Positions 4,819-56,294 of a stretch of DNA of 64,000 nucleotides are shown piece after piece. Within the stretch, counting starts at the first letter, position 1. Each line of letters starts with the position of its first letter. Under the pieces are notes generated by a model. It did no database searches. It saw only the letters and a program-made list of their open reading frames with translations, and was not told where the DNA came from. This DNA is from a virus. The DNA lies in the IMG/VR virus record IMGVR_UViG_3300045988_180880, positions 64,001 to 128,000 of that record, one strand, 5' to 3'. Made by a program: the position numbers and the translations under genes.

Positions 4819-4976
4819 AATGGTTTCCTAATTGGTACGTTAGGTGTGAATCCTAGAATATATAATGTGAATTATGTATTAAATTTTGTGTATTGCTGGG
4901 AGGATCTAAATATCTAATCAGCAGTTGAAGATAATTTATTTATACGAATTTATAATAATTAAAATACTAGAATATT

Positions 4977-5582
4977 ATGAAGGTACTTAGAATTAAACAC
5001 TTCTCTTCTCTAGTATCTACACAACCAATTTTTAATAGATCTGAACATATGAAGCAACTACATGCTCAAGGAAGATATCAAGGTACTTCTAAAATTGGTA
5101 TATGGAATTCTAGTGAAGAGAAGAGACAAAGAATGGCATTACTTGGAGCTAAAAATGCTTTAGATAAAAATTCTAAAGGTTATGGATCTGAGTATGCAAT
5201 GAGAGTAAATAATAGAATATTACTTGGAAATAAATTTCAAGGAGAAACTGGTTATTTATATTTTGTAAGATATCCGAAATCAATAAAAATTGGATTTTCA
5301 AAGAATTGGGAACGTAGAATTAATACCCAATTGATGAATCAATTTCAAATACTTGGTGGAAAAGTTGTAGCAATTATATCAGGACCTACCAATGAACTAG
5401 CTGATCTCGAGTTTGATACTTTTATTAAATTTCAAAAATATACTAAACTGTCTAAAGACGAAACAAGGTATACTGAATTTTTAGATGATAAAATTAGAAA
5501 AGACGTATATAACTTTTTGGATGATAAAGTAAAAAATAATAGTAATTTGAAATTTATTATACAAAATAAAATAAACCTTTGA
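4977..5582 (+). CDS. Intron-encoded T5orf172/GIY-YIG-like protein
   Basis: GYLYFVRYPKSIKIGFS...R pattern. Lies inside the intron between Q and R. Confidence 0.5.
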   Translation: MKVLRIKHFSSLVSTQPIFNRSEHMKQLHAQGRYQGTSKIGIWNSSEEKRQRMALLGAKNALDKNSKGYGSEYAMRVNNRILLGNKFQGETGYLYFVRYPKSIKIGFSKNWERRINTQLMNQFQILGGKVVAIISGPTNELADLEFDTFIKFQKYTKLSKDETRYTEFLDDKIRKDVYNFLDDKVKNNSNLKFIIQNKINL

Positions 5583-6364
5583 AATTTATGACACAAGAAG
5601 AAATTAAATACCATAATCAACTATGGTATTATAAAACATATAATCAACTTATAGATAAATGTATACAATTGGAGTCTGATGGTTATCCAGAAGATATGTA
5701 TACAGAGGTTCACCATATATTACCTAAATGTATGGGTGGAACAAATAAGGAAGATAATTTAGTAAGAATGCCTGTTAGATATCATATAATGGCTCATTTA
5801 TTACTTGTAAAAATATATCCAAATATAGGAAAAATAATATATGCAGCTAATATAATGATTGTCGGAAATAAAAATACAAGAGCTGAACGAAATCTAGCTT
5901 TAAATCAATTCTCTACAAAAACTATTAGTCAATTAAGGGAAACTATGGCAAATTATCAGAAAGGAAAACCTTTATCAGAAGAACATAAGCAGAAAATTTC
6001 TTTTGCATTAAAAGGAAAAGTACATTCTGAGGATCATAATAGAAAAGTTTCTGAATCTAAAAAAGGAAAACATTTATCAAAAGAAACGAAAGATAAGTTA
6101 AAGTTGTCCCATTTAGGTAAAAGTCTTTCTGAAAGTCATAAAAAAGCTATTGGAAACGCTCTTCGTGGAAGAAAAGGAAAACCTCTCTCTGAGGAAGTAA
6201 GAGAGAAAATTTCTAAAAATAATAAAATGTCAAAAGCTGTTCAGGATTATAATGGTGTAATTTATAATAGTATCTCTGATTGTTCTAGAAAATTAAATAT
6301 TCCAGATAGTACTATTAGTTATTGGATCAAAAAACATCCTGAAAAAGGTTTTAAATTCGTATAA
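5579..6364 (+). CDS. Intron-encoded HNH homing endonuclease
   Basis: EVHHILPKCMGGT..N..H HNH motif. Repeated SEEHKxKIS (NUMOD3-like) modules. Likely true start is the ATG at 5588. Close paralog of 13745-14629. Confidence 0.8.
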   Translation: MKFMTQEEIKYHNQLWYYKTYNQLIDKCIQLESDGYPEDMYTEVHHILPKCMGGTNKEDNLVRMPVRYHIMAHLLLVKIYPNIGKIIYAANIMIVGNKNTRAERNLALNQFSTKTISQLRETMANYQKGKPLSEEHKQKISFALKGKVHSEDHNRKVSESKKGKHLSKETKDKLKLSHLGKSLSESHKKAIGNALRGRKGKPLSEEVREKISKNNKMSKAVQDYNGVIYNSISDCSRKLNIPDSTISYWIKKHPEKGFKFV

Positions 6365-6511
6365 ATAAATTAATCACAATTCAACGACTATGGACAAAAC
6401 CAGGCTAGTGTTGTGATAACCTAGTTTTAACCATGGAAAATATAGTCTTTGCAAGATAGAATTATATCTTGGGTAATCAATATAAGTTGGCTAAAGTATT
6501 GATTATCACAG

Positions 6512-7163
6512 AGTTAATCGCCAACCCTCTTTGCACGAGTACAGTATGTTTAGCATGAAGCTCAAGCTTAATGATTCATATGCAATTGAATTTCCCATCG
6601 CTGTTTGTGAGCCTTTAAATGCTGACTTCGATGGCGATACGTGCTCCATACAACTCGTCCCTCCAGAGGCAGCAGAAGAAACATATCTTAGGATGTCGCC
6701 AAGATATGTGAATGTTTATAAGAAAAATAATGAACCTATATTTAAATTTAACCACGAAACTTTGAATGGTCTTGCAGTTGCATCAGAATACGTATTTGAT
6801 GATCAGGATGAATTAGAAAATCCTAGACACTTTTATACGGATTATGTGCAACTTCTTAAAGATGTTGAAGTAGAGAAAAAAATTAAAGTAGGTACTCCAA
6901 TTACATTCACTGGAAAAATTGGAAATGTTGAATATACCGCTAAAACAACAAGTTATGGTAGACTTCGAATTTCTAAGATTCTAGACGCAGATATGGATGA
7001 AATTGGGATTTTATCTAATAAATATGAACGTATCAGTGCTAAAGCTGCTTCGAAATTATCTTTATATCTTAATCAATTTCCTGATGGAGTTGAGAAAAGA
7101 AAAGCATTACAGAAGCTTGCCCTCAGAATTGTTACATTAGCAGGAGTAGTTACGTTTGACTAT
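6512..7163 (+). CDS. rpoC: RNA polymerase beta' exon 2 (catalytic loop)
   Basis: Contains NADFDGD. Begins NRQPSLH. Confidence 0.85.
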
Positions 7164-7350
7164 AAAATTGTAGCTTAAGAAATAAATTATCTTGAGAAAA
7201 TTCTATTAAAATGCTAGAACTATTAGAATAAAGTAGAATTAGCATCTCTATCTCTTAGATAAAATAGAGTTCAACGACTAAATATAGAACTGTATGAAGT
7301 TATATACAGATGATATAGTCTATCTAAATTAAGAAGATTTAGAATTAATG
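7164..7350 (+). mobile_element. Group I intron, type A, ORF-less
   Basis: AAATGCTAGAAC / TTAGCATC / GTTCAACGACTAA / GATATAGTCTA, then a P9 hairpin and 3' G. P1 is only 4 bp (CTAT/GTAG). Confidence 0.7.
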
Positions 7351-7464: not shown

Positions 7465-7637
7465 TAATTATTTTTAGCGACTTAATAATTTTAATTATTA
7501 AGAAAAATAAGAGAATTGCTAGAACTATATATAAAATACTGAACTAGCATCAAGTAGTATTAACTATTTGTTCAACGACTATGTACTTATTATAAAATGA
7601 TATAGTCTACCTTTATTGATTGAATAAAGAGTTAGTG
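7465..7637 (+). mobile_element. Group I intron, type A, ORF-less
   Basis: GAATTGCTAGAAC / CTAGCATC / GTTCAACGACTAT / GATATAGTCTA. P1 TCGT/GCGA. Confidence 0.7.
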
Positions 7638-7766: not shown

Positions 7767-7923
7767 GAAAATTAACTCATTATATTAAAATTATGTTAAT
7801 TGCTGGAACTGTAAGAATTATAGAATTAGCATCAAGTAAAAGCTTAAATTATTTGTTCAACGACTATATACATAATATTAAAGATATAGTCTAAACTTAT
7901 ATAAAGTAATATAAGTATCATTG
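7767..7923 (+). mobile_element. Group I intron, type A, ORF-less (about 157 nt)
   Basis: TAATTGCTGGAAC / TTAGCATC / GTTCAACGACTAT / AGATATAGTCTAA, P9 hairpin, tail ATCATTG. Confidence 0.7.
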
Positions 7924-8042: not shown

Positions 8043-9332
8043 TTTAGTTTACCTTTAGTTGACTATAAATTCTACTAAATGCTGGAATTCTGTGAAGAGA
8101 ATCAGCAGTTAATACAAAACTAAGTCATAAAGTTGTGAAATTATTATGGCAGGGAAATTGGAAAAATTTATATTAACAGATAAAGAAGAAATAGATTCTT
8201 TTAATAAATTAATTAGTTTAAATCCGCAACCTGGAAAATCTTTTGATAATTATTTAAAAGTTATCAATCGCGGTCATTATAAAATATGTTTATATAAATG
8301 GTTTACTGGATTAGATGAAGATATTTATGTAACTCAATCTCATTTATATAAACATTTGAATGATAATAGCAAATTTGTTAAAATAACACCTCAAATTTAT
8401 TATGATGTTATAGTATTAGGTTTGACTAATATTAATGATCGTCCTAAATGTGAAATATGTGGAAAAATATCTAGATGGGATGGATTTAAAAGAGGTTATT
8501 TAAAAACATGTTCAGAAAAGTGTTCTGAACTATTAAGAGATAGTAGAATGTCTGAACAAGGATTAAAAAATTTTCACAAATTACAGACAAAAGAGTCTAG
8601 AGAAAAGCAGAGGGAATCACATAAAGGATGGAGTCCTTCAGAAAAACAAAGAAAACAAATTTCTCAACGAATGAAAGATTTCTATAAGACACCAAAAGGA
8701 TTAGAAATGAGAAAGAATTCTAGTAGGTTATTATCTGAAAGAAATATTGAAATGATGAAAGATAAGTCTTATTATAACAAACGAACAGGAGGTAAATATA
8801 AAACAGGTATATATCATTCTAAAGTTTGGAATAAAGATTTTAATTATGATTCATCTTGGGAAATTAATTTTATAAAATTTTTTGAAAAGCAGAAATGGCA
8901 AAGTGAGATAAAAATATTTGATAGGTGTTTAGATTCTATTATTTATAAATGGGATGATGGAACTGAACATAGATATCTACCTGATTTTTACATCAAATTT
9001 AAATCAGGTCTTCAAGTTGTTATTGAGTTAAAACCAGCAAATCTAATAGAAAAAGATCCGGTGATTTTAGCCAAAAGAATAGCAGCGAAGAAATACTTTG
9101 CAAAAAGAAATATAAAATATATTATATTATCTGAAAATGAACTATTCACAACTAGATATATAAAGTATACTAAATTATCTGAAAGTTTAGGAATAGTTAA
9201 TTCATTTAATATTTATGATTACATAGTTTAATTAAGATTTAGTTTTGTATTAATTCAACGACTATATGTAGAAACTTATGTGAATAAGAAAGGTATAGTC
9301 TAAGTCTTTATGAATAAATAAAGATATCACTG
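8043..9332 (+). mobile_element. Group I intron core (type A) with endonuclease ORF; first half of a tandem insertion
   Basis: AAATGCTGGAAT (8081) / AATCAGCAG (8104) / ATTCAACGACTAT (9253) / GGTATAGTCTAA (9292), P9 hairpin, tail ATCACTG. Confidence 0.65.
8146..9231 (+). CDS. Intron-encoded PD-(D/E)xK-type endonuclease
   Basis: C-terminal PDFY..VIELKP (D..ExK). Cys-rich CEICGK..CSEKC. NUMOD-like SxxxKxKIS repeats. Confidence 0.55.
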   Translation: MAGKLEKFILTDKEEIDSFNKLISLNPQPGKSFDNYLKVINRGHYKICLYKWFTGLDEDIYVTQSHLYKHLNDNSKFVKITPQIYYDVIVLGLTNINDRPKCEICGKISRWDGFKRGYLKTCSEKCSELLRDSRMSEQGLKNFHKLQTKESREKQRESHKGWSPSEKQRKQISQRMKDFYKTPKGLEMRKNSSRLLSERNIEMMKDKSYYNKRTGGKYKTGIYHSKVWNKDFNYDSSWEINFIKFFEKQKWQSEIKIFDRCLDSIIYKWDDGTEHRYLPDFYIKFKSGLQVVIELKPANLIEKDPVILAKRIAAKKYFAKRNIKYIILSENELFTTRYIKYTKLSESLGIVNSFNIYDYIV

Positions 9333-9388: not shown

Positions 9389-9780
9389 ACAAAGAAATGC
9401 TGGAAATAATAATAGACAGACGAAGTCAAAGTTTTTTAAAATCAGCAACTTATCAACGAGAAAAAGATGAATTATTAGTACTTTTTAAAACTTAATGTGT
9501 AGATTTGAAAAATTCTTAGAAACTCTAAGGCTTGTTGGAAGTATAGCAAGAACTATACTCTCTGGAATTGAAGAATATAGAAAAATTCAAGAAACAAAAG
9601 CTTATCGAGAGAATAAGAAAAATAATGTAAAATATCTACCAAGACCAAAAAGGTATAATAGTAGAAGAAAACAAAGATAAGATCAACGACTATGTATTGT
9701 TAGATTAAGGAAACTCTTTAATCATGATATAGTCTAATCTTACGTGAATAAGCGTAAGCAGGATAAGAGATTAGAAGACG
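9389..9780 (+). mobile_element. Group I intron core (type A); second half of the tandem insertion
   Basis: AAATGCTGGAAAT (9395) / AAATCAGCAAC (9439) / GATCAACGACTAT (9681) / GATATAGTCTAA (9726), P9 hairpin. No convincing P1 of its own. Confidence 0.55.
9495..9680 (+). CDS. Small basic ORF inside intron core
   Basis: 61-aa ORF with a K/R-rich C-terminus. No endonuclease motif. Confidence 0.3.
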   Translation: MCRFEKFLETLRLVGSIARTILSGIEEYRKIQETKAYRENKKNNVKYLPRPKRYNSRRKQR

Positions 9781-10106: not shown

Positions 10107-10353
10107 AAGTTTAGAATTGTCCATAAAAGTTTGTTATAGACTTTTATTAAACTTCAAGAATTGCTGGGAGTATTATCGCTATTTATTCTTCGCCTTGTAA
10201 AATAAAAAACTTAAGGCGAAAATTATATAGCGAGAGATAATCAGCAAAAGATATAGAAAATATATCTTCTTAACGACTATGTGTGAAGGAGAGATTAAAA
10301 CACTCTTAAGATATAGTCTAGTAATCTATATAAAGTTTGTATAGGTTTAATCG
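10107..10353 (+). mobile_element. Group I intron, type A, ORF-less
   Basis: GAATTGCTGGGAG / TAATCAGCA / CTTAACGACTAT / AGATATAGTCTA. The junction gives GAAIG-L-SFATS. Confidence 0.7.
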
Positions 10354-10400
10354 TATCATTTGCTACATCATTAACTGAAGGTACTACTCAATTAAAATTG
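10354..10400 (+). CDS. rpoC: RNA polymerase beta' exon 7 (trigger-loop base); 3' end approximate
   Basis: SFATSLTEGTTQLK matches bacterial AAQSIGEPGTQLT. The 3' boundary is uncertain by about 10 nt. Confidence 0.6.
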
Positions 10401-10573
10401 GTTGCTATATAAAATAGTATTATATAGAAAATCTTTGTAAAATGCTGGAAATTAAAAAAAAATAATCAGCATCAAGGAATATATTAATAACTTGTTCAAC
10501 GACTATAAAAAAAGATCTTATTAATTTAAGAATGGTATAGTCTAAATTCATTCTAAAAGGATGAATAATCTTG
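10401..10573 (+). mobile_element. Group I intron, type A, ORF-less (boundaries approximate)
   Basis: AAATGCTGGAAAT / TAATCAGCATC / GTTCAACGACTAT / GGTATAGTCTAA, then a P9 hairpin. Confidence 0.65.
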
Positions 10574-10602
10574 CAGCATTAGGTCTGAAACATGGTGGCC
10601 AT
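10574..10602 (+). CDS. rpoC: RNA polymerase beta' exon 8 (about 29 nt)
   Basis: Encodes ALGLKHGGH (bacterial RTFHIGG). The 3' end is set by P1 GCCAT/GTGGC with U.G. Confidence 0.65.
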
Positions 10603-10762
10603 AGATTATATTTGTGGCGTATAATTTCAATAATTGCTGGAAATATTTGTAATAAAATAAATCAGCAGGGGAAAATAAAATCCCTTCAACGACTATAAAT
10701 GAAACTAGATGAATTTCTGGATGATATAGTCTAACTTATAAATTATATTATAAGAGTAATTG
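10603..10762 (+). mobile_element. Group I intron, type A, ORF-less (about 160 nt)
   Basis: TAATTGCTGGAAAT / AAATCAGCAGG / CTTCAACGACTAT / GATATAGTCTAA, 3' G at 10762. Confidence 0.75.
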
Positions 10763-11002: not shown

Positions 11003-11195
11003 GAATATAAAATTGCCGTCTAAGGAAGTAATTCTCTAGATAATTAGTAAGTAAATTTGGTGAAGCTAGTAACTAGTAATACCAAGCCTTGGATTAATAA
11101 TTAGAATCTTAAGGTATAACGAATAAAGACTTACCAACTTTTTTATAAGTTGAATTTATATTCTAAACTATAATAAGAAAATTATAGATAAATTG
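11003..11195 (+). mobile_element. Group I intron, type B, ORF-less
   Basis: GCCG guide, P2 hairpin, AGTAAGTAAATTTGGTGAAG / AATACCAAG / TATAACGAATAAAGACTTACC / AATTTATATTCT, terminal hairpin, tail ATAAATTG. Confidence 0.7.
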
Positions 11196-12123: not shown

Positions 12124-12474
12124 ATGAACGATAATTATTATAAAATTATACTATCATATGAAATTCCATATAACATTTTAGACAGTCAAGATCCGAATAT
12201 TATACAGGCGAGAGAAATATTATATGAAAAACTTAGAGATGATATTTTTCCGAAGTATGAAAGATTTTCGGTAAAGCTTACATTACATCAACTTAAAGAT
12301 AACTTCAATTATCTTGTTACTTATGAAGCTTTTTTTAGATCTCTTGATGGTAAACCTATGGGAGAATATGTAGAGGCTCGTAGCTTAAAAGATAGTATTA
12401 AATCAGAATTAGAAACATTTTTTAATTCAGTAGATTGCGAATATAAGCAATTAAATATAAAACCATTAGTATAA
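12124..12474 (+). CDS. Hypothetical protein
   Basis: ORF whose stop overlaps the beta start (TAATG). Confidence 0.55.
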   Translation: MNDNYYKIILSYEIPYNILDSQDPNIIQAREILYEKLRDDIFPKYERFSVKLTLHQLKDNFNYLVTYEAFFRSLDGKPMGEYVEARSLKDSIKSELETFFNSVDCEYKQLNIKPLV

Positions 12475-13336
12475 TGAGTAATTTTAATCAATATTTCAGA
12501 AACACTGGAGCAAAAATTATAGTAGATCGATTTTTTAATAAAGTTGATGCATATAATCCTAAAGTAAAAGTTGGAAAAATTGGATATTCATTTATAGAAG
12601 AACCTCCTCAACCAGCTTCTTACTATATTGAAAATGGATTAACTGCTACACATAAAGTAAGAATTGAATATACAACTATAACGGATGGGAAAGAAGATCC
12701 TGAAATGAAGTATGCAGAGTTCGAAGTTCCTAAAGAAATTGATGGTGCATTTATTATAGAAGGCGCTTATCGTATTTCAACTAATCGAATGGGATCTGAT
12801 TATGACTGTCGTATTAAAATGTCTGGTACAGGAGATTATAAAGTTAATTTCGACTATGATAGAGTTTACGATATTCAAAAACAGATTCTGAAGATAAAAA
12901 GAATTAATCCGGAACTTGGAATTGCAGATAAACCAATTGATATAAAGTTTGAAGACATTGATAAATACTTGGAAACTGATAAAAAGGAGATCTTGAAGTT
13001 AACTGAAAGACAAACCAAGAAATTAATGATCAAACTTGACTTGGATTATAAACCTGAATATATTACACAAAAACTAATACAGGAATGTTTGGCCTTTGGA
13101 GATGATAGACTAAAAGACTTAATCATTGATAAAACATTAGAATCAGTTCCTAACAGTTTTATGCAATATATTTTTAGGAATAATAATGGACGTAACTATT
13201 TTGCAGCTAGACGAAGAATTACATCATATTTTACAAAGTATGGTAAAATTCAAGATCAAGTTACTGCAATTAGTACTTTGTGTTTTAGATTTTTTAAAGG
13301 AAGTAGCGATAACAAAGGAGATTCAGGAGTACAGGT
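12474..13336 (+). CDS. rpoB: RNA polymerase beta homologue, exon 1
   Basis: DGAFIIEGAYRISTNRM resembles bacterial GTFVINGTERVIVSQL. Ends in CAGGT ahead of the type B guide GCCG. Confidence 0.8.
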
Positions 13337-13557
13337 ACAAAATATAAAGGTGCCGTTTTATGGAGAAATCTATAAAATTATTAGTAAGTAAATTCGGTGA
13401 AGGGTAAAACCTAATACCGAACTAAGGATAATGAAAATTTTTAGTGTAACGAATAAAGACTTACTAACTTATAATTAAAATATAAGTTAAATTTATATTC
13501 TGTTCTATATAAGTAGAACTTTATTTATATAGTTAACAATAAAGCCCCCCTGGAGTA
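13337..13557 (+). mobile_element. Group I intron, type B (3' boundary unresolved)
   Basis: GCCG, P2 hairpin, AGTAAGTAAATTCGGTGAAG / AATACCGAAC / GTGTAACGAATAAAGACTTACT / AAATTTATATTCT, terminal hairpin ending at 13531. Confidence 0.6.
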
Positions 13558-13641
13558 AATTCCATTAACTTAGAGGCAATCTCCCAAAAAATTGTTATTC
13601 CTGCGAGTGTAGCCTTTAATTCGACTTTTACAGATTTAGAT
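13558..13641 (+). CDS. rpoB: RNA polymerase beta exon 2 (5' end approximate)
   Basis: The only open frame is ISINLEAISQKIVIPASVAFNSTFTDLD. The 3' end is set by P1 TTAGAT/GTCTGA. Confidence 0.5.
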
Positions 13642-14763
13642 TAAGTCTGATTATAGAATATTTTTTATAATAAAAACTTTGAGAATTGCTAGAAAACTAG
13701 TGATAGTTAATTAGCAGTATAAAATAAGTATAATTATTTATGCGTTGAGAGGAAAAATTTTTGAAAGGAATTTAAGAATGACGCATGTAAAAGAAATTAA
13801 ATACCACAATCAATTATGGTATTATAAAACGTACAATCAGTTAATAGATAAGTGTATACAGATGGAGTCTGAAGGTTATCCTGAAGATATGTATACAGAG
13901 GTTCACCACATACTACCTAAATGTATGGGTGGGACAAATGATGAGTCTAACTTAGTAAGAATGCCAGTTAGGTATCATATAATGGCACATTTATTGTTAG
14001 CACAAGTATATCCAGAAATAAATGGATTAGTTTATGCAGCACATGTTCTAGTCTCAGTGAATAATTCAGTTGTATCTACGAATACAGCTGCATTAATTAG
14101 AGAAGATTTTAAAAAGTCTAGAATAGGATCTCATCATTCAGAAGAGACAAGGAGAAAAATTTCTGAATCTAACAAAGGAAAAGTTATCCCTAGAGAACTA
14201 GTAGAGAAGTTAAGATCTATTAATTTAGGGAAGAAACATTCACTTGAAACGAGAAAGAAGATGTCAGAAGCTAGAAAAAGAGAGAATTTATCCGAGGAAA
14301 CACTAAGAAAAAGATCTCTAGCGTCCTCTGGAAGAAAACATTCTGAAGAAGTCAAGAAGAAGATTTCTATAGCTAATACTGGAAAAATTTTTAGCGAAGA
14401 ACACAGACAAAACATATCTAAAAGTAAGATGGGAAAAGGACATCCACATACTGAAAAAACAAAGAAAATGATGTCTGATACTAGCGTTAAGAGAAAAAGA
14501 GTTCAAGGCCCTGATGGAATAATTTACGAATCTATGAAACTTTGTTGTGAGAAATTTAATATTCATAGAGATACCCTTCGAAGCTGGATTAAAAATCACC
14601 CAGAAAAAGGCTTTAAATTTATTGATTAAAAAATTTATCATTACTATAAATTCCTTTCAATGTAATGAAATTTAATACTTATTTTATATTCAACGACTAT
14701 GTACAAAGAGGGAAATTCCTTAAGATATAGTCTAGTGATAAAGTAAAAAACTTTATCTATTCG
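13642..14763 (+). mobile_element. Group I intron, type A, with HNH ORF
   Basis: GAATTGCTAGAAA / TTAGCAG / ATTCAACGACTAT (14690) / AGATATAGTCTA, P9 hairpin, tail TATTCG. Confidence 0.8.
13745..14629 (+). CDS. Intron-encoded HNH homing endonuclease
   Basis: EVHHILPKCMGGTN and repeated SEETRxKIS modules. C-terminal WIKNHPEKGFKF. Likely start is the ATG at 13778. Confidence 0.8.
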   Translation: MRGKIFERNLRMTHVKEIKYHNQLWYYKTYNQLIDKCIQMESEGYPEDMYTEVHHILPKCMGGTNDESNLVRMPVRYHIMAHLLLAQVYPEINGLVYAAHVLVSVNNSVVSTNTAALIREDFKKSRIGSHHSEETRRKISESNKGKVIPRELVEKLRSINLGKKHSLETRKKMSEARKRENLSEETLRKRSLASSGRKHSEEVKKKISIANTGKIFSEEHRQNISKSKMGKGHPHTEKTKKMMSDTSVKRKRVQGPDGIIYESMKLCCEKFNIHRDTLRSWIKNHPEKGFKFID

Positions 14764-15132
14764 TTAGTCGATATTGCCGACACTCCTATAAATAATAATA
14801 CTAACCTCCAGAACTCACTTACAGTTTCATGTCATATTACAGACGATGATGTACTATTTGATGTATATGATACAAATTTCGTAAAAATAACAATAAAATA
14901 TATAGACTATCTTAATAAAAAAGTAGCTGCCAGTGAGTATGTAGATTATGAAACTAACACTTTAAAGCCAGATAAAGATGGTCAAGTGGAGGTTAAGTAT
15001 AGGATGAAAAGAAAGATGGTTCCAGTCGAAGAAGTGGAATTGATCGATTTACATCCTGATTACAGATTGTCTAGCACAACTCGAAGAATCCCATTTGTGA
15101 ATTATACAGATAGTGTCAGAATAAGCATGGGT
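14764..15132 (+). CDS. rpoB: RNA polymerase beta exon 3
   Basis: LVDIADTPINNNTNLQNSL resembles bacterial RVCPIETPEGPNIGLINSL. IPFVNYTDSVRISMG resembles IPFLEHDDANRALMG. Confidence 0.8.
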
Positions 15133-15326
15133 ACTAATTTATGTGCCGCTTAAAGTAGTAATATTTTAAGTAACCAGTAAGTAAATTCGGTGAAAGAGTG
15201 ACTGAGCTTTAATACCGAGCTAAAGATAATAGATTTCTTTAGTGTAACGAATAAAGACTTACTAACCAAAATAAAGGTTAAATTTATATTCTAAACTATA
15301 ATTAAAAGTATATTATAGAAGATTTG
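15133..15326 (+). mobile_element. Group I intron, type B, ORF-less
   Basis: Follows ATGGGT. Same conserved core as 11003-11195. The junction restores MG-TSMLKQSIPL (bacterial MGSNMQRQAVPL). Confidence 0.8.
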
Positions 15327-16266
15327 ACATCAATGCTTAAACAGAGTATACCTCTGATTAATGCGGAGCGTGCACTTGTTGACACTGGAAGGAATGAAGA
15401 GTTGAAAGATAATATATTAAATGAAAAGTTCAGTTATCCAGAGGGTAAGGTAAAGGATATAACAGAGGATGAAGTTATAATTGAATTGCCTGATGGAACT
15501 GAGACAAATATTTTACGAAGAACAGCGATTCAGAGTATAAATGACGTGGCGGTATTTACAGAGCCTAAAGTAAAAATCGGCCAAAAAGTAAAACAGGGAG
15601 ATATTATAACTGGTGCAGTTGGACATACTCCTGAAACATATAAGGCCGGCGTTAATGCTCTGGTACTTTTCCACGCCTATTATGGTTTAGTAAATGAGGA
15701 TGCTTTGGTGATATCAGAATCATTTGCAAATCGTATAGCATCTTATAGTATAATTGACTTAATGATTAATGTTAAGAGTACTAGTGCTATTAAGTGGATC
15801 GCCCCTATTGGAACAAAGGTTAAATCAAAAGATGCAGTAGTGACATTATATAAAGCTGTTCGTCTTGATGCTATAAATCAGGCACTACAAGAAAAACTCG
15901 GAGGACTTTTCGGAGAAGGACATGATCTCTCCGAATATACTATCGAGGATCATTTAGTTGTGCCTAATAATATAGACGAGGCAATAGTTTCTGATGTAAT
16001 GATACAGGAAATGAAGAAACCTAAAATTCCTAAATCAGTAAAATCACCTGACTATTCATTTACACATACCTCTCAGGATGTTATAGATGAATATGAAAAA
16101 ACAAAATCTCGAAAAATTATCTACGAGAAATACCCAGAGTATATTGCAGCTGATACATTAGATCCTATTAATATGGATCCAGAAGCGTATAAGATTGTGT
16201 ATACTGTTCGCGTGAGACTCATCAAAAGAACTGTGGGAATGATCGGAAGTAAAATTACCTCTAGAT
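15327..16266 (+). CDS. rpoB: RNA polymerase beta exon 4
   Basis: NALVLFHAYYGLVNEDALVISE resembles bacterial [22 protein letters not shown]. P1 CTAGAT/GTCTAG. Confidence 0.85.
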
Positions 16267-17666
16267 TTAATATAAGTCTAGTTAATTTTCAATAAAAGTT
16301 AACTAAATTTTGTGAATTGCTGGAAAAATCTAAATAAAATAGATGGATAGATAAATCAGCAGTATATTTATGTTTAATTATGAGTAAAATATGAGCGATA
16401 TTAATTTTTAATAATAAATTGAACAATGAGCGAAGAAGAAATATTAATACATAATCAAAATTGGTATCGCAAAGTATATTTCCAAATAATTGATCGCGCT
16501 AGATTAAGAGGTTTGGATAAAAATAAAATTGATTTTTATGTAGAAATTCATCATATACTACCTAAATGCCTAGGAGGAACTGATGAAAATGATAACTTAG
16601 TTGCATTAACTTATAGAGAACATATAGTTTGTCATAAATTATTGTGTAAATTATACCCAGATAATTACTACTTACATTCTTCTATATATTTAATGCTACA
16701 TATTAAAATAGAAAATGGGAAGAAGGTAAAAACATTTTCTAATTCTAAAGAGGCAGAAGAATATAAGCTTTTCTTGAAAACTCATAAAAAGCCTCTTTCT
16801 GAGGAATCTAGAAAAAAGATGTCAGAATCGCATAAAGGTTGGAGTCCATCTGAGGAACATAGAAGAAGAGTTTCAGAAGTACATACTGGAAAAATCGTTT
16901 CAAAAGAAACCAGAGAAAAATTAAGAAAGGTTAATCTGGGAAGACATCATACAGAAGAATCCAAAAGAAAGATATCAGAGTCACGTAGAGGAAAGAAATT
17001 ATCTTCAGAACAAAAAGAAAAAATTTCAAAATCACTAAAAGGAAAAAGATTAGGAATCTCTCCAACTAAGGAACAAGTAGAAAAAGCAAAACAAACTCGG
17101 ATACTCCATGGAGGGTGGGTACATACAGATGAAAGTAAAAGAAAAATTTCAGAATCTTTAAAGAAGACGAATTCTGTCTCTGAACATATATCAGAAGATA
17201 TAAGAAATTCTTTAAGGAAAAAGTTTGGGTTCGCTGTAAGATATACTGATATTAATACTGGTGAAATTTACGAATTTGATTCAATTACAAAAGCTGTTAG
17301 TGAACTTAAAGAGTTAAGTATTATGAATAAAAGCTTTCATTTTATAAAGCGTTCTTGTACATTAAATATTAATGGATTTGAATTTATCAATGAAACAAAT
17401 GAAATGATTCAAAAGAAAGTTCAGGGGCCTGATGGAATTATTTACAATAGTATATCTGAATGTGCTAGACAATTGAATACAGTTAGATCTGTAATTATTG
17501 ATTGGATTACTAATCATCCAGAAAAAGGATTTAAATACATTTAAAAAATCAATCGCTCATTGATATAAAAATAATTAAATAAAATATATTCAACGACTAT
17601 GTACAAAGAAGGAGTATTTCCTTAAGATATAGTCTAGACTTTACTTAATTAAGTAAAGTATTATCG
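16267..17666 (+). mobile_element. Group I intron, type A, with HNH ORF
   Basis: GAATTGCTGGAAAA / AAATCAGCAG / ATTCAACGACTAT (17589) / AGATATAGTCTA, P9 hairpin, tail ATTATCG. Confidence 0.8.
16426..17544 (+). CDS. Intron-encoded HNH homing endonuclease
   Basis: EIHHILPKCLGGTDENDN..H and repeated SEExRxKxS modules. C-terminal WITNHPEKGFKY. Confidence 0.8.
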   Translation: MSEEEILIHNQNWYRKVYFQIIDRARLRGLDKNKIDFYVEIHHILPKCLGGTDENDNLVALTYREHIVCHKLLCKLYPDNYYLHSSIYLMLHIKIENGKKVKTFSNSKEAEEYKLFLKTHKKPLSEESRKKMSESHKGWSPSEEHRRRVSEVHTGKIVSKETREKLRKVNLGRHHTEESKRKISESRRGKKLSSEQKEKISKSLKGKRLGISPTKEQVEKAKQTRILHGGWVHTDESKRKISESLKKTNSVSEHISEDIRNSLRKKFGFAVRYTDINTGEIYEFDSITKAVSELKELSIMNKSFHFIKRSCTLNINGFEFINETNEMIQKKVQGPDGIIYNSISECARQLNTVRSVIIDWITNHPEKGFKYI

Positions 17667-17680
17667 ATGGAGGCAAAGGT
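17667..17680 (+). CDS. rpoB: RNA polymerase beta exon 5, a 14-nt micro-exon
   Basis: ATGGAGGCAAAGGT. Joined to its neighbours it gives SR-Y-GGKG-VVS, matching bacterial GRHGNKGVIS with identical spacing. Confidence 0.7.
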
Positions 17681-17871
17681 CAAATTACAAGGCCGTTTAA
17701 GGTAGTAATATCTTAAATAATCAGTAAGTAAATTTGGTGAAGGAAGTAAAATTCTAATACCAAGCTAATAAAATATAATAATTTATTAGTATAACGAATA
17801 AAGACTTACTAGGTTGAAATAATACCTAAATTTATATTCTAATTTACTAGGATAATCTAGTAATAGTAATG
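17681..17871 (+). mobile_element. Group I intron, type B, ORF-less
   Basis: Follows AAAGGT. Has GGCCG, a P2 hairpin and the conserved type B core. Tail TAGTAATG. Confidence 0.75.
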
Positions 17872-18645
17872 GTTGTAAGTGCTGTGAAACCCGACGATAT
17901 GATGCCAATAATGGTAGATAAGGATGGGAAACAAAGACGTTGCGAAGTAGTGATGAATCCATACAGCACAATAAATCGTAAAATTCCGAGTGTCCTTATG
18001 GAATTACAACTCGGAAATATCGCTCACAAATTACACGATCTTGTAGATAATTATAAGAAAACAAAAACAGGGCAAAAGAAGATTAAGCCCCTTCTTGAAA
18101 CATATTACCCCGGACGTTTTACTAGTATGGATGTAGAAGAAATTATAGAACGTCATAATACTAGTAAAATCGAGGATATGTATTATTTCAATGTTGGCTG
18201 CTTCTCTACTAAATTTACTCCAGAACTTGTAAATCAATGGGCTGAAGATTTAGGTGTAGAAAGTCAGAGTAAAATTCTTATGCCTGAGACTGAATTAACA
18301 GATCTCGATGAATTAAAAGAAAATCTAGAACCAGAAGAATATGATAAATTAGTTTCTGGAATGTCTGGTAAGTTTAGAGAAGTAGATAAACCTTTGCAGG
18401 CGGGATTCATGACCCTTGAAGAGTTATACCATATACCATCATATAGTAATAAGGTTACATCAAGTCTATATGGCGTAGATATTAATGCTAAACGAGATGA
18501 ACCTATACTTGGAAAGGGACGCTATAGACAGACAGGACAGAAAATTGGTGAGATGGAATTGGCCGTATTACTTTCTAGAAATGCGGATCAATTTATCAGC
18601 GGTGCTAGAAAAGACACTGCGAAGGAAGATAATCAAATGTTCCTT
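17872..18645 (+). CDS. rpoB: RNA polymerase beta exon 6
   Basis: VVMNPYSTINRKIPS resembles IVLNPLGVPSRMNIGQ. GQKIGEMELAVL resembles GGQRFGEMEVWAL. Confidence 0.85.
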
Positions 18646-18833
18646 AAATTATTGAGGCTAGTATCAATACAAACTGATACTAGAAAATATCTTAAATTGC
18701 TGGAACAAAGTAGAAAATCAGCATCAAGCTGTTGTTTTATAATTAACAGCTTGTTCAACGACTATAGTAGATACTAAAGAATACTTATTTTAGATAATAT
18801 AGTCTTACTTTAAATAAAATTAAAGATGAATAG
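18646..18833 (+). mobile_element. Group I intron, type A, ORF-less
   Basis: AAATTGCTGGAAC / AAATCAGCATC / GTTCAACGACTAT / TAATATAGTCTTA, P9 hairpin, tail ATGAATAG. P1 CCTT/GAGG. Confidence 0.7.
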
Positions 18834-18862
18834 AATAACTTATTAGGTCTAGGATTAACCGT
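18834..18862 (+). CDS. rpoB: RNA polymerase beta exon 7 (29 nt)
   Basis: Encodes NNLLGLGLT(V). P1 AACCGT/GCGGTT with U.G. Confidence 0.6.
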
Positions 18863-19046
18863 AAACTATTTGCGGTTTTAAATTATATTAAAATGCTAGA
18901 ATATTTATAATAAATATATTAGCAAAATATCTTACCTTAGATTATATCTAAGAAAAAGATATTCTCAACGACTAAATATATAACTAAGTTTGAAATATAA
19001 TTTAGATGATATAGTCTGAACATAGATTAATAATAATCTAGTAACG
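18863..19046 (+). mobile_element. Group I intron, type A, ORF-less
   Basis: AAATGCTAGAAT / TTAGCAA / CTCAACGACTAA / GATATAGTCTGA, P9 hairpin, tail GTAACG. Confidence 0.7.
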
Positions 19047-19053
19047 TAATTGA
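19047..19053 (+). CDS. rpoB: RNA polymerase beta terminal exon (7 nt: 4 coding nt plus stop)
   Basis: GT + T AAT TGA gives ..TVN-stop. All three frames close within a few codons after the intron. Confidence 0.5.
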
Positions 19054-19165
19054 GTAGATGATAAAGGATTTAACCAAGGTGGATCAAGTCTGAAAAAGGA
19101 ATTGAATGACTTAAAGATTAAATTCCGTCGTAAAAATAACCTATTAAACATGGGAGGTAATTGAT

Positions 19166-19795
19166 ATGGAAAATAATAGCTGTTTAATGCTAAATTGCTC
19201 GCTTTATCTTCCAGTATCCTTATCTGCTATATTTAGTAGAGAAGATCTTAAAGATACTGGAATTGAAAATGAATCGCATATAACATTATTATATGCTCAA
19301 GGAAAAGAAATCCCTAAGATGAATATTCTTGGAGATATTGAAACTATTTTAGGGGAATCTGAATTTGATGATTTTATTGAATATATAAAATCTGAGAATA
19401 CTGAAAGAATCTTAGATAATTTTGAGATCGGATCTTTTGAGAATGATAGTGACTATATAGTGTTGAAAATGAAACAAACCAGTGAATTATACAAAACACT
19501 TGGATTAATTAATAAAGGATTAAGAACAAAATATGAAGTTGTTTCTGAGTATTCCTATACGCCTCATATATCCCTCGCTGAACTTCAACCAGGAACAGCA
19601 AGGAAATATCTCGAGGATCCTAAGATTAAATTAATTCTAGAAGAAAGTTTTGTATCATTCGAAGATCTTGTTATTTCCTATGGACCTAGTAATACGCCTG
19701 TAGATAGATTGAGATATAATCTAACTACATTTAATGCAATTGATTACTTCTTTCATACAGAAAATATGAGAAAAGAAAATTCAGAATTAGATTAA
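19166..19795 (+). CDS. 2H phosphoesterase superfamily protein (LigT / cyclic phosphodiesterase-like)
   Basis: Two H-x-T/S motifs: SHITLLY and TPHISLA. Confidence 0.65.
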   Translation: MENNSCLMLNCSLYLPVSLSAIFSREDLKDTGIENESHITLLYAQGKEIPKMNILGDIETILGESEFDDFIEYIKSENTERILDNFEIGSFENDSDYIVLKMKQTSELYKTLGLINKGLRTKYEVVSEYSYTPHISLAELQPGTARKYLEDPKIKLILEESFVSFEDLVISYGPSNTPVDRLRYNLTTFNAIDYFFHTENMRKENSELD

Positions 19796-22867: not shown

Positions 22868-22941
22868 TGGGCCCAGCCAGGCTTGAACTGACGACCTTCT
22901 GATTATGAGTCAGCTTCTCTAACCAACTGAGATATGGGCCC
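22868..22941 (-). tRNA. tRNA with CAU anticodon (Met, or Ile if lysidine-modified)
   Basis: Reverse complement GGGCCCATATCTCAGTTGGTTAGAGAAGCTGACTCATAATCAGAAGGTCGTCAGTTCAAGCCTGGCTGGGCCCA folds as a cloverleaf. The TPsiC arm is GGTCGTCAGTTCAAGCC. Confidence 0.9.
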
Positions 22942-37163: not shown

Positions 37164-37336
37164 TACTAAATTTAATATGGTATTAAATTATTAGACTATA
37201 TCATCTATTTTTCATAGTTATACATTTAGTCGTTGAACAAGTAACTAATATTCCTTGATGCTGATTTATGTCTTACATTTTCCAGCATTTTAGTATAATT
37301 TTCTTAAATTTTATTATTTAAGCGACTAAGCAATTA
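37164..37336 (-). mobile_element. Group I intron, type A, ORF-less
   Basis: The - strand reads AAATGCTGGAAAA / AAATCAGCATC / GTTCAACGACTAA / GATATAGTCTAA. P1 CGAT/GTCG. Coordinates may be off by 1-2 nt. Confidence 0.7.
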
Positions 37337-37549: not shown

Positions 37550-37714
37550 CATTAAACTATTAGACTATATCATCTATATTTTTATAGTTCTATATTTAGT
37601 CGTTGAACTCTATCTCTTAGATAAAAGATAGAGATGCTAATTCTATTTTATTCTAATAGTTCTAGCATTTTAATAGAATTTTCATAGATTCTTATATCTA
37701 TGCTTCATTCGTTT
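37550..37714 (-). mobile_element. Group I intron, type A, ORF-less
   Basis: The - strand reads AAATGCTAGAAC / TTAGCATC / GTTCAACGACTAA / GATATAGTCTAA. P1 CTTT/GAAG. P2 CATAGAT/ATCTATG. Confidence 0.7.
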
Positions 37715-53232: not shown

Positions 53233-55260
53233 ATGACTAAAGATAAAATTATTGTACCTAGAGGAATTAGGTATATAGGAGAGTGGAAAGATTTCTGCTT
53301 TTCTAATTTTCTAAGTAAATGTATTATTAATAAACAATTACCTGGATGTGGTTTTACTGAATACTGTATTAATGGTCCTGAGAATGTAATACTTTGTTCT
53401 CCTAGAAAAATGCTTTTAAAGAATAAATATGATCAACATAAAAATGATATTTATTTAGTAATTAATGAGATGGATAAAGATCCAGATGTGGATAAGGATA
53501 TTAGTAAGGATATTAAAAATCCTAATTTAGATGAAGATTATCAAGAAAAGAAAGATAATTCTGAGATCTATGAAAGATTATATAGAGAAATTGATACTTA
53601 TACCTATCAAAGATATCTAAATAATCAACCAGCTAAGATTCTAGTAACATATGATTCATATAGAATCGTTAAAGATATTCTTGAAAAAATTAGAATATTT
53701 GATAGGTTTATGACTATAGTAGATGAGTTTCAGAGTATTTTACACGATTCTAGATTTAAAAGCAATACTGAAATGGGATTTTTGGAATATCTTAAACAAT
53801 CCCCAACAGCATACTTTGTATCAGCTACTCCTATGATGGATGAATATCTAGAAATGTTAGATGAATTTAAGGATCTCCCATATTATGAATTAGATTGGTA
53901 TAGTTCAGATTCTAGTAGAGTAATCAAACCTTCATTAAAAGTACTTACAATGAAATCAGTAGGTACAAAAGCAGAAGAAGTAATTCAATCCTATCTATCA
54001 GGAGATTTTGAAGAAGTTGTTGTTCTTAGAGATAGTGTACCTACTAGAGTAATATCAGACGAAGCAGTATTTTATGTAAACAGTGTTAATCATATTATAT
54101 CTATCATCAAGAAAAATGAATTAACTCCAGAACAATGTAATATATTATGTAGCAATACTCCAGAAAATCTAAAGAGAATACAAAAGAAATTAGGAAAAGG
54201 TTTTACTATAGGAGAAGTACCTCTTAAAGGAGTTAAACCTAGGATGTTTACCTTTTGTACTAGAACGGTTTACTTAGGAGCAGATTTTTATAGTTTATGT
54301 GCACGTAGTTTTATATTCTCAGATTCTAATTCAGACTGTTTAGCAGTTGATATTGCAGAAGATCTTCCACAGATACTAGGTAGACAAAGGTTGTTTAGTA
54401 ATCCTTGGAACAATTCAGCAACTTTTTATTATCGTACTACAGCAGATTATAGAGAAATGAAAGAGTCTGATTTTCAGAAAATTTTAAATAAGAAAACAGA
54501 AACTACAGAAAACTTATTATCAGTATATAATAAAGGAACTGATGAAGAAAGATATGATTTAGCGAAAAATTATTTATATGTAGCTAAGTCAGCAAGTTAT
54601 AAAGATAATTATGTAGCAGTAAATAAAATAATTACCAGTACAGGTAATATTATTTTAAAACCTGTTATTAATCAGCTTGTAAAAGTTAATGAGATTCGAG
54701 CATTTAAAATTCAGCAAATTGATTATAAAGATAGATTTAGTGTATTTAGTAGTGTACACTCTAAACTTACTCCTGATGATATAGTAAATAGGGATGTAAC
54801 TAGATTTTTCTGTATTTATGATACTTATACTACAATTCATGATAAACTTAAAATGTTATGTGAATATCCTGTTTCTAGAGAAGTGATAGATATAGTTCTT
54901 GGACAAATAGCAGATTCTGATGAAGTTAAGTCTTATTATCTGTCATTAGGTCCTACTAAACTTAAAGCGTTATCATACAATTCTCATAAAATAAAGAAAG
55001 AGCTTGGAATAGTAACATTTAGTCCAGAATTACTTAATAATACAATTCATCAAAACTTTAATCCAGGAGAGAAATATACACTATCTAATCTTAAAGCAAA
55101 ACTAGGAGATTTATATTCTAGTATTTCTTATACTGCAGTGCCAAAAGCTAATGATATTTTAAATTACTTTGAGGTAAAAGAATATAAATCTACTGAGGTT
55201 GTAGATGGGGAAAAGAAAAGAGTAAGAGGATATGAACTATTAAAAAGAAAGGATAATTAA
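53233..55260 (+). CDS. SF2 helicase-like protein, paralog 2
   Basis: Same motifs as 355-2397: PGCGFTE, DEFQ, SATP, QILGRQR. Confidence 0.6.
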   Translation: MTKDKIIVPRGIRYIGEWKDFCFSNFLSKCIINKQLPGCGFTEYCINGPENVILCSPRKMLLKNKYDQHKNDIYLVINEMDKDPDVDKDISKDIKNPNLDEDYQEKKDNSEIYERLYREIDTYTYQRYLNNQPAKILVTYDSYRIVKDILEKIRIFDRFMTIVDEFQSILHDSRFKSNTEMGFLEYLKQSPTAYFVSATPMMDEYLEMLDEFKDLPYYELDWYSSDSSRVIKPSLKVLTMKSVGTKAEEVIQSYLSGDFEEVVVLRDSVPTRVISDEAVFYVNSVNHIISIIKKNELTPEQCNILCSNTPENLKRIQKKLGKGFTIGEVPLKGVKPRMFTFCTRTVYLGADFYSLCARSFIFSDSNSDCLAVDIAEDLPQILGRQRLFSNPWNNSATFYYRTTADYREMKESDFQKILNKKTETTENLLSVYNKGTDEERYDLAKNYLYVAKSASYKDNYVAVNKIITSTGNIILKPVINQLVKVNEIRAFKIQQIDYKDRFSVFSSVHSKLTPDDIVNRDVTRFFCIYDTYTTIHDKLKMLCEYPVSREVIDIVLGQIADSDEVKSYYLSLGPTKLKALSYNSHKIKKELGIVTFSPELLNNTIHQNFNPGEKYTLSNLKAKLGDLYSSISYTAVPKANDILNYFEVKEYKSTEVVDGEKKRVRGYELLKRKDN

Positions 55261-55262
55261 TT

Positions 55263-56294
55263 ATGATATATTTGATTAAGAGTGCAGGTTATGATGAGAA
55301 TGAAAATTTAATTCATCTTCTCAAAATAGGTTATACAGAGGATAATAATAGAGATAGAAGATTTATGTCTTACAAACTTCATAATCCTACTTGTAAAATT
55401 TTATATGAAATTCCCAGTCTTTCAGAAGATATAGAAAAGAGAATTCAATATAAGTTTAGAGATTATAAGTATAAAGAATATGGAAATGAGTGGTTTTATT
55501 ATAATGATGATGTAATAAATTTCTTTAGGGATATAGATAAAGTAGATTTGGAATCTCTTCCAAAGTCTCCTATGAGTGAAAAGAGGGATTATAAGAGATT
55601 TAGAAAAATGGTTAAAGAATTTGTTCCTTGGATTATTGCTGATATAAAGGATAGAAATGAATATGTAAAGAAGATAATAGATGAATTAGGTAGTAATTTA
55701 AATTCTATTCAGGATATATTAGATTATGTGATAAAGGATTACGGAGAGGATTCTATCTCTAAGTATCTTGAAGTTACTAAGAAAAAAGAGATGAAAGTGT
55801 ATAGTGAAGATTCAAAGATTAATAGTGAAATAATAAAGTTTATTAATACTTATGAAACTCTTACTACTATCTATGATAAACTTAAAATGTTATGTGAATA
55901 TCCAGTCTCTAAGGAAGTTATTCAGATAGTATTAGATCAAATAGCAGATAGTGATGAGATTAAGTCTTATTATTTGCTTTTAGGTCCTGATAGGTTGAAA
56001 AAATTACATTATAATATTACAAATATTAGAAGAGAATTAGGTATTGTAACCTTTAGTCCTGAATTATTAAATAATACTATTCATCAAAATTTTAATCCAG
56101 GTGAGAAGTATACATTAGCTAATTTAAAGGCTAAACTTGGAGATCTATACTCTTCTATTTCTTATACTGCAGTTCCTAAGGCCAATGATATTTTAGAGTA
56201 TTTCGAAGTAAAAGAGGTTCAAAATACTATGTTAGTAGATGGAGTAAAGAAGCGAATTCGTAGTTATGAATTATTAAAAAGAAAGGATAATTAA
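55263..56294 (+). CDS. T5orf172-like domain fused to the C-terminal domain of the helicase-like paralogs
   Basis: N-terminal IYLIKSAG....LLKIGYTED..R. The last ~150 aa are near-identical to the C-terminus of 53233-55260. Confidence 0.6.
   Translation: MIYLIKSAGYDENENLIHLLKIGYTEDNNRDRRFMSYKLHNPTCKILYEIPSLSEDIEKRIQYKFRDYKYKEYGNEWFYYNDDVINFFRDIDKVDLESLPKSPMSEKRDYKRFRKMVKEFVPWIIADIKDRNEYVKKIIDELGSNLNSIQDILDYVIKDYGEDSISKYLEVTKKKEMKVYSEDSKINSEIIKFINTYETLTTIYDKLKMLCEYPVSKEVIQIVLDQIADSDEIKSYYLLLGPDRLKKLHYNITNIRRELGIVTFSPELLNNTIHQNFNPGEKYTLANLKAKLGDLYSSISYTAVPKANDILEYFEVKEVQNTMLVDGVKKRIRSYELLKRKDN

Follow-up and report, generated by a model that had tools for sequence, protein, structure and literature searches.

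A predicted 14-nt exon between two different group I introns in the RNA polymerase beta gene of a jumbo phage

The RNA polymerase beta gene and its 14-nt exon

The window (the whole 64-kb stretch of viral DNA that was analysed) is AT-rich (approximately 29% GC) and contains a predicted RNA polymerase beta gene at positions 12474–19164 of the plus strand, composed of 8 exons and 7 introns. Exons 1–4 are located at 12474–13336, 13545–13635, 14764–15132 and 15327–16266, and exons 5–8 at 17667–17680, 17872–18645, 18834–18862 and 19053–19164, all on the same strand. The spliced ORF of this 8-exon model has 3192 nt and encodes 1063 aa, with one stop codon, at its end. The introns make up 3499 of the 6691 nt of the gene. 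Four of them, including two with HNH ORFs, belong to a repeat family termed type A, and three to another, termed type B. In the whole-gene model, each of the seven introns is preceded by T and ends with G; some of the other junctions, in beta and in beta', were also set against intronless alleles. One further short exon of this gene, 29 nt in length (18834–18862), separates two ORF-less type A introns (18646–18833 and 18863–19052).

Exon 5 (17667–17680, AUGGAGGCAAAGGU) has 14 nt. The 3′ end of exon 4 (...GGAAGTAAAATTACCTCTAGAT) encodes GSKITSR and supplies the first base of a Tyr codon; the 14-nt exon provides the second and third bases of this codon, followed by those for Gly-Gly-Lys-Gly, and exon 6 encodes VVSAVKPDDMMP...KEDNQMFL. 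In the nucleotide sequence, positions 17667–17680 read ATGGAGGCAAAGGT, with G at 17666, T at 17680 and G at 17871. Joining 16266 to 17667–17680 and then to 17872 keeps the reading frame and gives GSKITSR-Y-GGKG-VVSAVKPDDMMP, which aligns with g089 of phage AR9 (GSKITGRYGNKGVISKILPDDQMP) and RpoB of Staphylococcus phage DC4 (GSKITTRYGGKGVVAEIVPDDQMP). The resulting motif, SRYGGKGVV, corresponds to GRYGNKGVI in AR9 and to TRYGGKGVV in Staphylococcus jumbo phages, and the protein around it shares 36–46% identity with the beta subunits of AR9/PBS1-like Bacillus and Staphylococcus jumbo phages. The Pfam domain RNA_pol_Rpb2_6 was recognized in the protein encoded by the spliced C-terminal exons, across the junction of the short exon (3.8e-14). 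The 64-kb window contains a single occurrence of the degenerate pattern ATGGNGGNAARGGT, compared with 0.01 occurrences expected in shuffled sequences. A megablast search of GenBank phages with positions 15000–19500 gave no match.

Scanning of IMG/VR with the spliced protein identified 24 loci (contigs of 30–378 kb, 85–100% identity), among which the intron content of the gene is highly variable; the relatives of the window in this database are contigs of 212–401 kb with approximately 29% GC. In five related contigs that are intronless here (L003 and L005–L008), TCTAGAT, ATGGTGGTAAGGGT and GTTGTA form an uninterrupted sequence, and in L004 there are no introns over residues 1–1014. Since a shift of either junction by one base fails to reproduce the continuous intronless sequence, both junctions are unique, and the predicted fully spliced transcript reads TCTAGAT/ATGGAGGCAAAGGT/GTTGTAAGT.

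An earlier note on this DNA had described the 14 nt as a micro-exon encoding the GGKG of a conserved beta motif, placed between an HNH-bearing type A intron ending at G17666 and a type B intron with its 5′ splice site after GGT. The intronless alleles, the homologous proteins and the single ORF indicate that such an exon is real, and the (Y)GGKG motif is restored in frame and in alignment with AR9 and DC4. The upstream element is recognizable as a group I intron whose 3′ G is fixed by the intronless alleles, the downstream one as a second and different group I intron beginning after GGT, and types A and B proved to be two genuine repeat families in the window.

The gene might instead not be spliced at all, being a split gene translated as fragments or a decaying pseudogene, with the 14 nt as a non-coding spacer. 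The products would then be polypeptides ending with ...SRFNISLVNFQ or starting with MVVSAV, and none would span SRYGGKGVVSAVK. Indeed, an ATG at 17869 begins an ORF (17869–18777), AR9 and phiKZ-like phages have a split beta subunit, and split beta/beta' genes are normal in AR9-like phages. However, this ATG is not preceded by a Shine-Dalgarno sequence, the 14 nt restore both the frame and the exact catalytic motif, the intronless alleles (approximately 96% protein identity) run through the site without a break, the two intervening sequences have ribozyme folds supported by covariation, and the U...G junction rule holds in all seven introns. We regard the absence of splicing as very improbable, and the 14 nt are most readily understood from the sequence as a true exon of the gene for the RNA polymerase beta subunit of a jumbo phage.

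Two other arrangements were considered and rejected: (i) a twintron, because the 14 nt are coding in the intronless alleles and each element has its own complete set of P1–P9, and (ii) a group II intron or an intein, given the small size and the lack of protein continuity.

Several features were observed elsewhere in the window. A tRNA gene lies on the minus strand at 22868–22941 (62.9 bits; loop CUCAUAA, anticodon CAU, of Met or Ile2 type). The regions 448–2223 and 53317–56120 are diverged direct repeats (63–81% identity over several hundred nt), which link a 680-aa ORF (355–2397) to the DNA at 53.3–56.1 kb and suggest paralogous genes.

The two intron families

The intron upstream of the 14-nt exon (intron A; 16267–17666, plus strand, 1400 nt) was folded manually as a group I intron with G17666 as its terminal base, and P2–P9 can be drawn in the canonical group I order. 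P1 (16261–16268 with 16274–16281) pairs CUAGAU/UU, the exon side of which (CUAGAU) is the last 6 nt of exon 4, with AAGUCUAG, and has a U.G pair at the splice site. The remaining helices are P2 (16281–16303), P3 (16308–16313 with 17603–17608), P4 (16317–16323 with 16356–16362), P5 (16328–16344), P6 (16362–16371 with 17579–17589), P6a (16392–16399 with 17552–17559), which closes the loop containing an ORF, P7 (17595–17601 with 17627–17634, GACUAUG with AUAUAGUC), P8 (17609–17623) and P9 (17638–17659). The J8/7–P7 element AAGAUAUAGUC and its partner AACGACUAUG are both present, and the P6 loop with the ORF is closed by UGAGCGAU and AUCGCUCA.

Minimum free energy (MFE) folding gave P7, P8 and P9 of intron A. 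When seven type A copies were analysed with RNAalifold, P4 and P7 were recovered; these were the only helices to emerge from a MAFFT alignment that was poor in the peripheral helices. P3 covaries among the copies (UUUUGU/ACAAAG, CUUCA/UGAAG and UUUCA/UGAAA), and P1 follows the local exon, as in the paralogous intron at 13636, where a covarying CAGAU/GUCUG pairing is found. The window contains 13 type A cores (AACGACUA...AUAGUC) on its plus strand and two on its minus strand, and several of the plus-strand copies are ORF-less introns of 160–250 nt. The Rfam model Intron_gpI (RF00028) matched one of these ORF-less members (10577–10753) over the full model with 29.3 bits (E=1.7e-5), against a gathering score of 50; neither at the gathering score nor at E≤10 did it match the ORF-containing intron A. 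A blastn search of GenBank phages with the ORF-deleted core of intron A returned nothing.

The ORF in the P6 loop (16426–17544, plus strand, 372 aa) encodes a putative HNH-type homing endonuclease. Two Pfam matches pass their cut-offs (NUMOD3, 2.4e-15; I-HmuI NUMOD-like, 2.3e-6), and the HNH domain itself scores 16.8 bits (7.9e-3), below the Pfam cut-off of 21.4. The predicted protein shares 28–40% identity with proteins of T4-like phages that are annotated as homing endonucleases; a sequence search of the PDB found no match.

Further type A introns are apparent in the beta' gene. Between three consecutive ORF-less copies (10107–10353, 10393–10573 and 10603–10762) lie exons of 39 nt (10354–10392) and 29 nt (10574–10602), within the conserved sequence ...GAAIG-LSFATSLTEGTTQ-SALGLKHGGH..., and comparison with L008 and L025, which have no introns here, confirms the junctions. 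Type A cores at 7273–7320, 7574–7607, 7859–7891, 9257–9300 and 9685–9734 indicate at least five more introns in the region of this gene. The first beta' intron, also of type A (4860–6520, with the 5′ site at 4859/4860 being a guess), apparently contains two overlapping ORFs, one of 201 aa with no Pfam match (4977–5582) and one with NUMOD3 and an I-TevI-like DNA-binding domain (5579–6364). Another ORF (8146–9231), between beta' fragments, has NUMOD3-like repeats (...SHKGWSPSEKQRKQIS...). The two minus-strand cores (37194–37234 and 37563–37604) point to two introns of a gene near 37.2–37.6 kb.

The downstream intron (intron B; 17681–17871, plus strand, 191 nt) is a compact ORF-less element with G17871 as its terminal base. 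Its P1 (17678–17681 with 17691–17694) is GGU/C paired with GGCC, with a U.G wobble at the 5′ splice site, and a 6-bp P10 joins UUACAA (17685–17690) to UUGUAA of the 3′ exon (17873–17878). The other helices are P2 (17696–17701 with 17712–17717), P3 (17723–17729 with 17804–17810), P4 (17734–17738 with 17759–17763), P5 (17742–17745 with 17752–17755), P6 (17765–17772 with 17782–17789), P7 (17796–17800 with 17835–17839; GAAUA/UAUUC), which forms a pseudoknot with P3, P8 (17811–17814 with 17824–17827) and P9 (17844–17850 with 17857–17863), a hairpin just 5′ of the terminal G. MFE folding of 17667–17885 recovered P1, P2–P6, P8 and P9 (z = −3.1).

Four type B copies, each of 191–208 nt, are present in the window (at 11003, 13337, 15133 and 17681), and a search of IMG/VR with the conserved core identified many more, at approximately 16 distinct insertion sites. 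Nearly all of these sites follow NGGT, with a GCC guide 8–20 nt downstream. At one site, after CAGT, the guide is GCTG, which constitutes covariation in P1 (CAGU:GCUG); the first intron base also covaries with its partner, and several other copies have P10 analogues of 3–5 bp. RNAalifold analysis of 16 distinct copies produced P2, P3, P4, P5, P6 and P8 in group I order. With the P7 pseudoknot added, 97% of the cells of this fold are paired and 20 of the 38 pairs show compensatory changes, values reached by none of 500 shuffles (slid controls gave 30–47%); P7 itself shows one compensatory change, GUAUA/UAUAC in L079.

RF00028 gave no match to intron B at the gathering score or at E≤10, even when the 231-nt sequence was searched alone, and blastn with intron B against GenBank phages found nothing. 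Since the single Rfam group I model misses many subgroups, this result lowers confidence in intron B without excluding it from group I. The assignment of both introns to this group is supported by comparative structure, not by a match of these two copies to a curated model; each is a probable group I intron. The group I intron of the Azoarcus tRNA-Ile gene has about 205 nt and recognizes 3 nt of its exon (CAU:GUG), and intron B resembles it in very small size and in a P1 with 3 exon bp. However, the two have no detectable sequence relationship, and intron B is multi-copy and located in protein-coding genes.

Base pairing around the exon and the order of splicing

The earlier note held that so short an exon must serve both the P10 of intron A and the P1 of intron B, implying ordered or cooperative splicing. 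P1 of intron B takes only exon bases 12–14 (GGU:GCC) and one intron pair. For the P10 of intron A, at most 2 bp can be formed with exon bases 1–6, at bases 2–3; the paralogue at 13636 has a 6-bp P10 (GAUUAA/UUAGUC). Because the P1 of intron B and the P10 of intron A use different exon bases, these pairings would not compete. In a fold of 301 nt comprising the 3′ core of intron A, the exon and intron B, P7, P8 and P9 of the former appear together with P1–P6 of the latter (z = −3.9), and in the MFE folds the exon is unpaired except for GGU while both cores are kept.

The two families also occur separately. Type B introns are found without a type A neighbour at at least 15 other sites, and in L009 a type B intron lies 6 nt upstream of the position used in the window, after TATGGAGGT, without a type A intron. 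The type B site next to a 9-nt exon in L047 and L055 is likewise occupied without the type A intron in five loci, and the type A introns at 10107–10762 in beta' have no type B neighbour. With non-overlapping pairings, cores that coexist in the predicted folds, and families that occur apart, the proposed dependence of splicing on order or cooperation is not supported.

According to the model that we favour, the 5′ site of intron A would be set by its P1 of 6+2 bp (CUAGAU/UU with AAGUCUAG) and the 3′ site by the terminal G and the core, with P10 almost absent. Intron B would use its GCC guide on the last three exon bases, GGU, and the P10 pairing of UUACAA with UUGUAA of the next exon. Each ribozyme would fold and splice alone, and either order would lead to the same exon-inclusion product, encoding SRYGGKGVV, through an intermediate with intron A removed and intron B retained (TCTAGATATGGAGGCAAAGGTCAAATTAC) or the reverse (TATTATCGATGGAGGCAAAGGTGTTGTAAG). 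Since the guides differ (GUCUAG in intron A, GCC in intron B) and the two introns pair with the exon at opposite ends, independent splicing of the two introns is the most likely course.

The pairing is weak at both sites, however. As P1 of intron B has 3 exon bp and P10 of intron A at most 2 bp, the fidelity of splice-site choice would rest on tertiary contacts, and steric interference or kinetic ordering across the approximately 8 unpaired nt between the cores is possible. A stronger form of this idea is that splicing is obligately ordered or cooperative, the 14-nt spacing barring simultaneous activity so that one intron must leave first or the cores must interact. The short distance between the terminal G of intron A and P1 of intron B (14 nt, about 8 of them unpaired) is in keeping with it, as is the finding that, in the collections searched, neither intron occurs at its exact site without the other, which mutual dependence also predicts. 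Cooperation was demonstrated for engineered pairs of Tetrahymena introns (PMC10136302), and cooperation of tandem group I introns over short exons has been discussed for Twort orf142. Against this stand the separate pairing needs (exon bases 2–3 for intron A, 12–14 for intron B), the lack of any alternative pairing that sequesters the exon, and the apparent functioning of both families apart elsewhere, including the same type B site beside the 9-nt exon; the perfect linkage is more simply explained by co-conversion over 14 bp. Obligate order or cooperation therefore seems unlikely.

Still less likely is alternative splicing in which a sizeable share of the transcripts joins 16266 to 17872 (TCTAGAT/GTTGTAAGT), giving a frameshifted, inactive beta subunit and modulating the level of polymerase. 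Skipping is known for short exons of 23 nt in Twort and 34 nt in Coxiella (PMC10136302), and reaches 47% in a polymerase gene of Bastillevirinae (PMC11878797). Here, by contrast, the introns on either side are members of two families, each with its own guide (GUCUAG and GCC), the GAU at the end of exon 4 does not fit the GCC guide of intron B, and the guide loop of intron A does not pair with exon 6, for which reasons skipping appears disfavoured; it would also introduce a frameshift into an essential catalytic subunit. In engineered tandem Tetrahymena introns, inclusion of the exon is favoured when the splice-site recognition elements are differentiated (PMC10136302).

Taken as a whole, the reading that we prefer is that of a true 14-nt exon between two unrelated, complete introns that were inserted 14 bp apart in the catalytic R-Y-G-G-K-G motif, splice independently and have been co-converted together, to which we assign a probability of roughly three in four from the sequence data. 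Of its components, the junctions, the folds of both introns, the behaviour of the families and the linkage are shown by the sequences, and the self-splicing of both introns, the independence of the two reactions and the co-conversion are deduced.

Linkage of the two introns and comparison with known systems

The block of intron A, the 14 nt and intron B forms one invariant haplotype in seven related contigs (L010–L014, L022 and L023) and in the window, and occurs on two different 5′ exon backgrounds. An allele with intron B alone at the exact site (pattern AGATATGGNGGNAARGGTCAAAT) gave no matches in IMG/VR, and its three matches in metagenome contigs were all in unrelated genes; the same was true of the three IMG/VR matches to the pattern for intron A alone (TCGATGGNGGNAARGGNGTTGT). 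Homing directed by the endonuclease of intron A would be expected to co-convert intron B, situated only 14 bp from the insertion site of intron A, and the linkage of the two introns probably reflects such co-conversion over 14 bp.

Across near-identical phages, at least five alternative intron positions are found within approximately 170 nt of coding sequence: in relatives after codons 746 and 757, at about 787 and between 789 and 802, and in the window at 754/759. The catalytic region of beta is a polymorphic intron hot spot whose configurations are apparently mutually exclusive. In some relatives a small type A intron follows ACCATCGGGAT (codon 746/747). Type A introns are also present after GAGGTTGTGAT and GTGATGAATCCTAT, about 84 nt past intron B in L010–L012, L014 and L023, and slightly further in L005–L008 and L015–L026.

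The type B intron of L009 (6946–7153; IMG/VR 3300045988_181237) interrupts a different Gly codon of the GGKG motif. The third Gly codon of L009 is GGC and not GGT; in the window the situation is reversed, the second being GGC and the third GGT. The insertion of type B tracks a GGT codon. In L030 (approximately 250–450; IMG/VR 3300045988_180488), a type B intron follows GCAGATTTTGATGGT in the catalytic NADFDGD motif of beta'; the corresponding Gly codon in the window (compare 6620–6650) is GGC and the intron is absent.

A comparable cluster was observed in L047 (7640–8330; 3300045988_179979) and L055 (3300007657_000002), in a gene encoding ...QDAPID/ENG/TEDG/TDRADIQVS.... The order is a type A intron, a 9-nt exon (GAAAATGGT), a type B intron, an exon of about 12 nt (ACTGAAGATGGT), a second type B intron, an exon of about 28 nt and a type A intron. 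The boundaries of the 9-nt exon agree with alleles lacking the type A intron. For the first type B intron, the position of the 3′ end is uncertain: P10 favours a 15-nt exon starting with CAG, but this needs an intron that does not end with G.

A more tentative extension, which we consider doubtful, is that type B is a dispersing element that recognizes little beyond GGU and moves by reverse splicing or by hitch-hiking with endonucleases, so that A and B, with the 9–14-nt exon between them, would be a single co-mobilized cassette. By the same account, which we hold equally loosely, type B would have colonized, in this clade of phages, at least 15 glycine codons that belong to conserved motifs and lie in essential genes, including that of NADFDGD in beta' of one relative. 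If this were true, the cassette would spread jointly and destroy the target sites of competing endonucleases, the micro-exon would be a mark of intron–intron hitch-hiking and competition in an RNA polymerase hot spot, and the recognition footprint of the endonuclease could limit how long it is.

Tandem group I introns separated by short exons have been described before, and the beta case alone reveals no new splicing mechanism. A close parallel is orf142 of Staphylococcus phage Twort, which is interrupted by three group I introns, the second and third of which enclose an exon of 23 nt that is subject to skipping (Landthaler & Shub 1999, as summarised in PMC10136302). Both are phage protein-coding genes with several group I introns and a tiny internal exon between complete introns. 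They differ in (i) the length of the exon (14 nt in beta, 23 nt in Twort), (ii) the introns, near-identical IA2 elements in Twort and of different families with different guides in beta, (iii) the HNH ORF, carried by one flanking intron in beta, unlike in Twort, and (iv) skipping, which has been shown in Twort and looks disfavoured in beta on the grounds of its sequence. In the 23S rRNA gene of Coxiella burnetii, a 34-nt exon lies between heterotypic IB2 and IA3 introns and undergoes skipping (cited in PMC10136302). That case concerns a bacterial rRNA gene, whereas here a phage mRNA and the codons of a catalytic motif are involved, and the exon is less than half as long.

Mitochondrial genes offer more extreme examples: a 1-nt exon between two IB introns in placozoan cox1 (PMC5436844), and the Ophiostoma rnl-576/577 introns, which lie one nucleotide apart (PMC12308204). 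As in beta, a minute exon is left between two group I introns that are independent of each other, and the origin proposed for these cases is the insertion of a second intron beside an existing one; however, they are organellar and far shorter than 14 nt. Given that 1-nt mitochondrial exons exist, the length of 14 nt alone needs no special mechanism.

Among phages, a polymerase gene of Bastillevirinae (SIOphi) contains a skipped exon (PMC11878797). The genomes of Jug phages each contain approximately 18 introns, with a length of about 206 nt, together with HNH genes (PMC12880540), and an HNH intron in a multisubunit RNA polymerase gene of the jumbo phage PhiPA3 (gp210) has been shown to act in phage–phage competition (PMC11620839). 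The likeness of these phages to the one studied here lies in AT-rich genomes of 200–400 kb with many group I introns of approximately 200 nt and HNH genes in core genes, and it does not amount to an assignment to the Jug phages. The parts of PMC12880540 and PMC11620839 that were available describe neither micro-exons nor a GGT-targeted family of ORF-less introns.

For annotation, the arrangement means that gene callers will fragment the 1063-aa protein and lose the GGKG motif. The site would also provide a natural system in which to study competition between introns and endonucleases, co-conversion and interference between closely spaced ribozymes. Among the published cases found, the shortest exon flanked by group I introns in a phage has 23 nt (Twort), a length that the exon of 14 nt (9 nt in a relative) would undercut. 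The beta case is further set apart by its heterotypic introns and by the position of the exon in a catalytic Lys-containing motif of a multisubunit RNA polymerase, within an intron hot spot.
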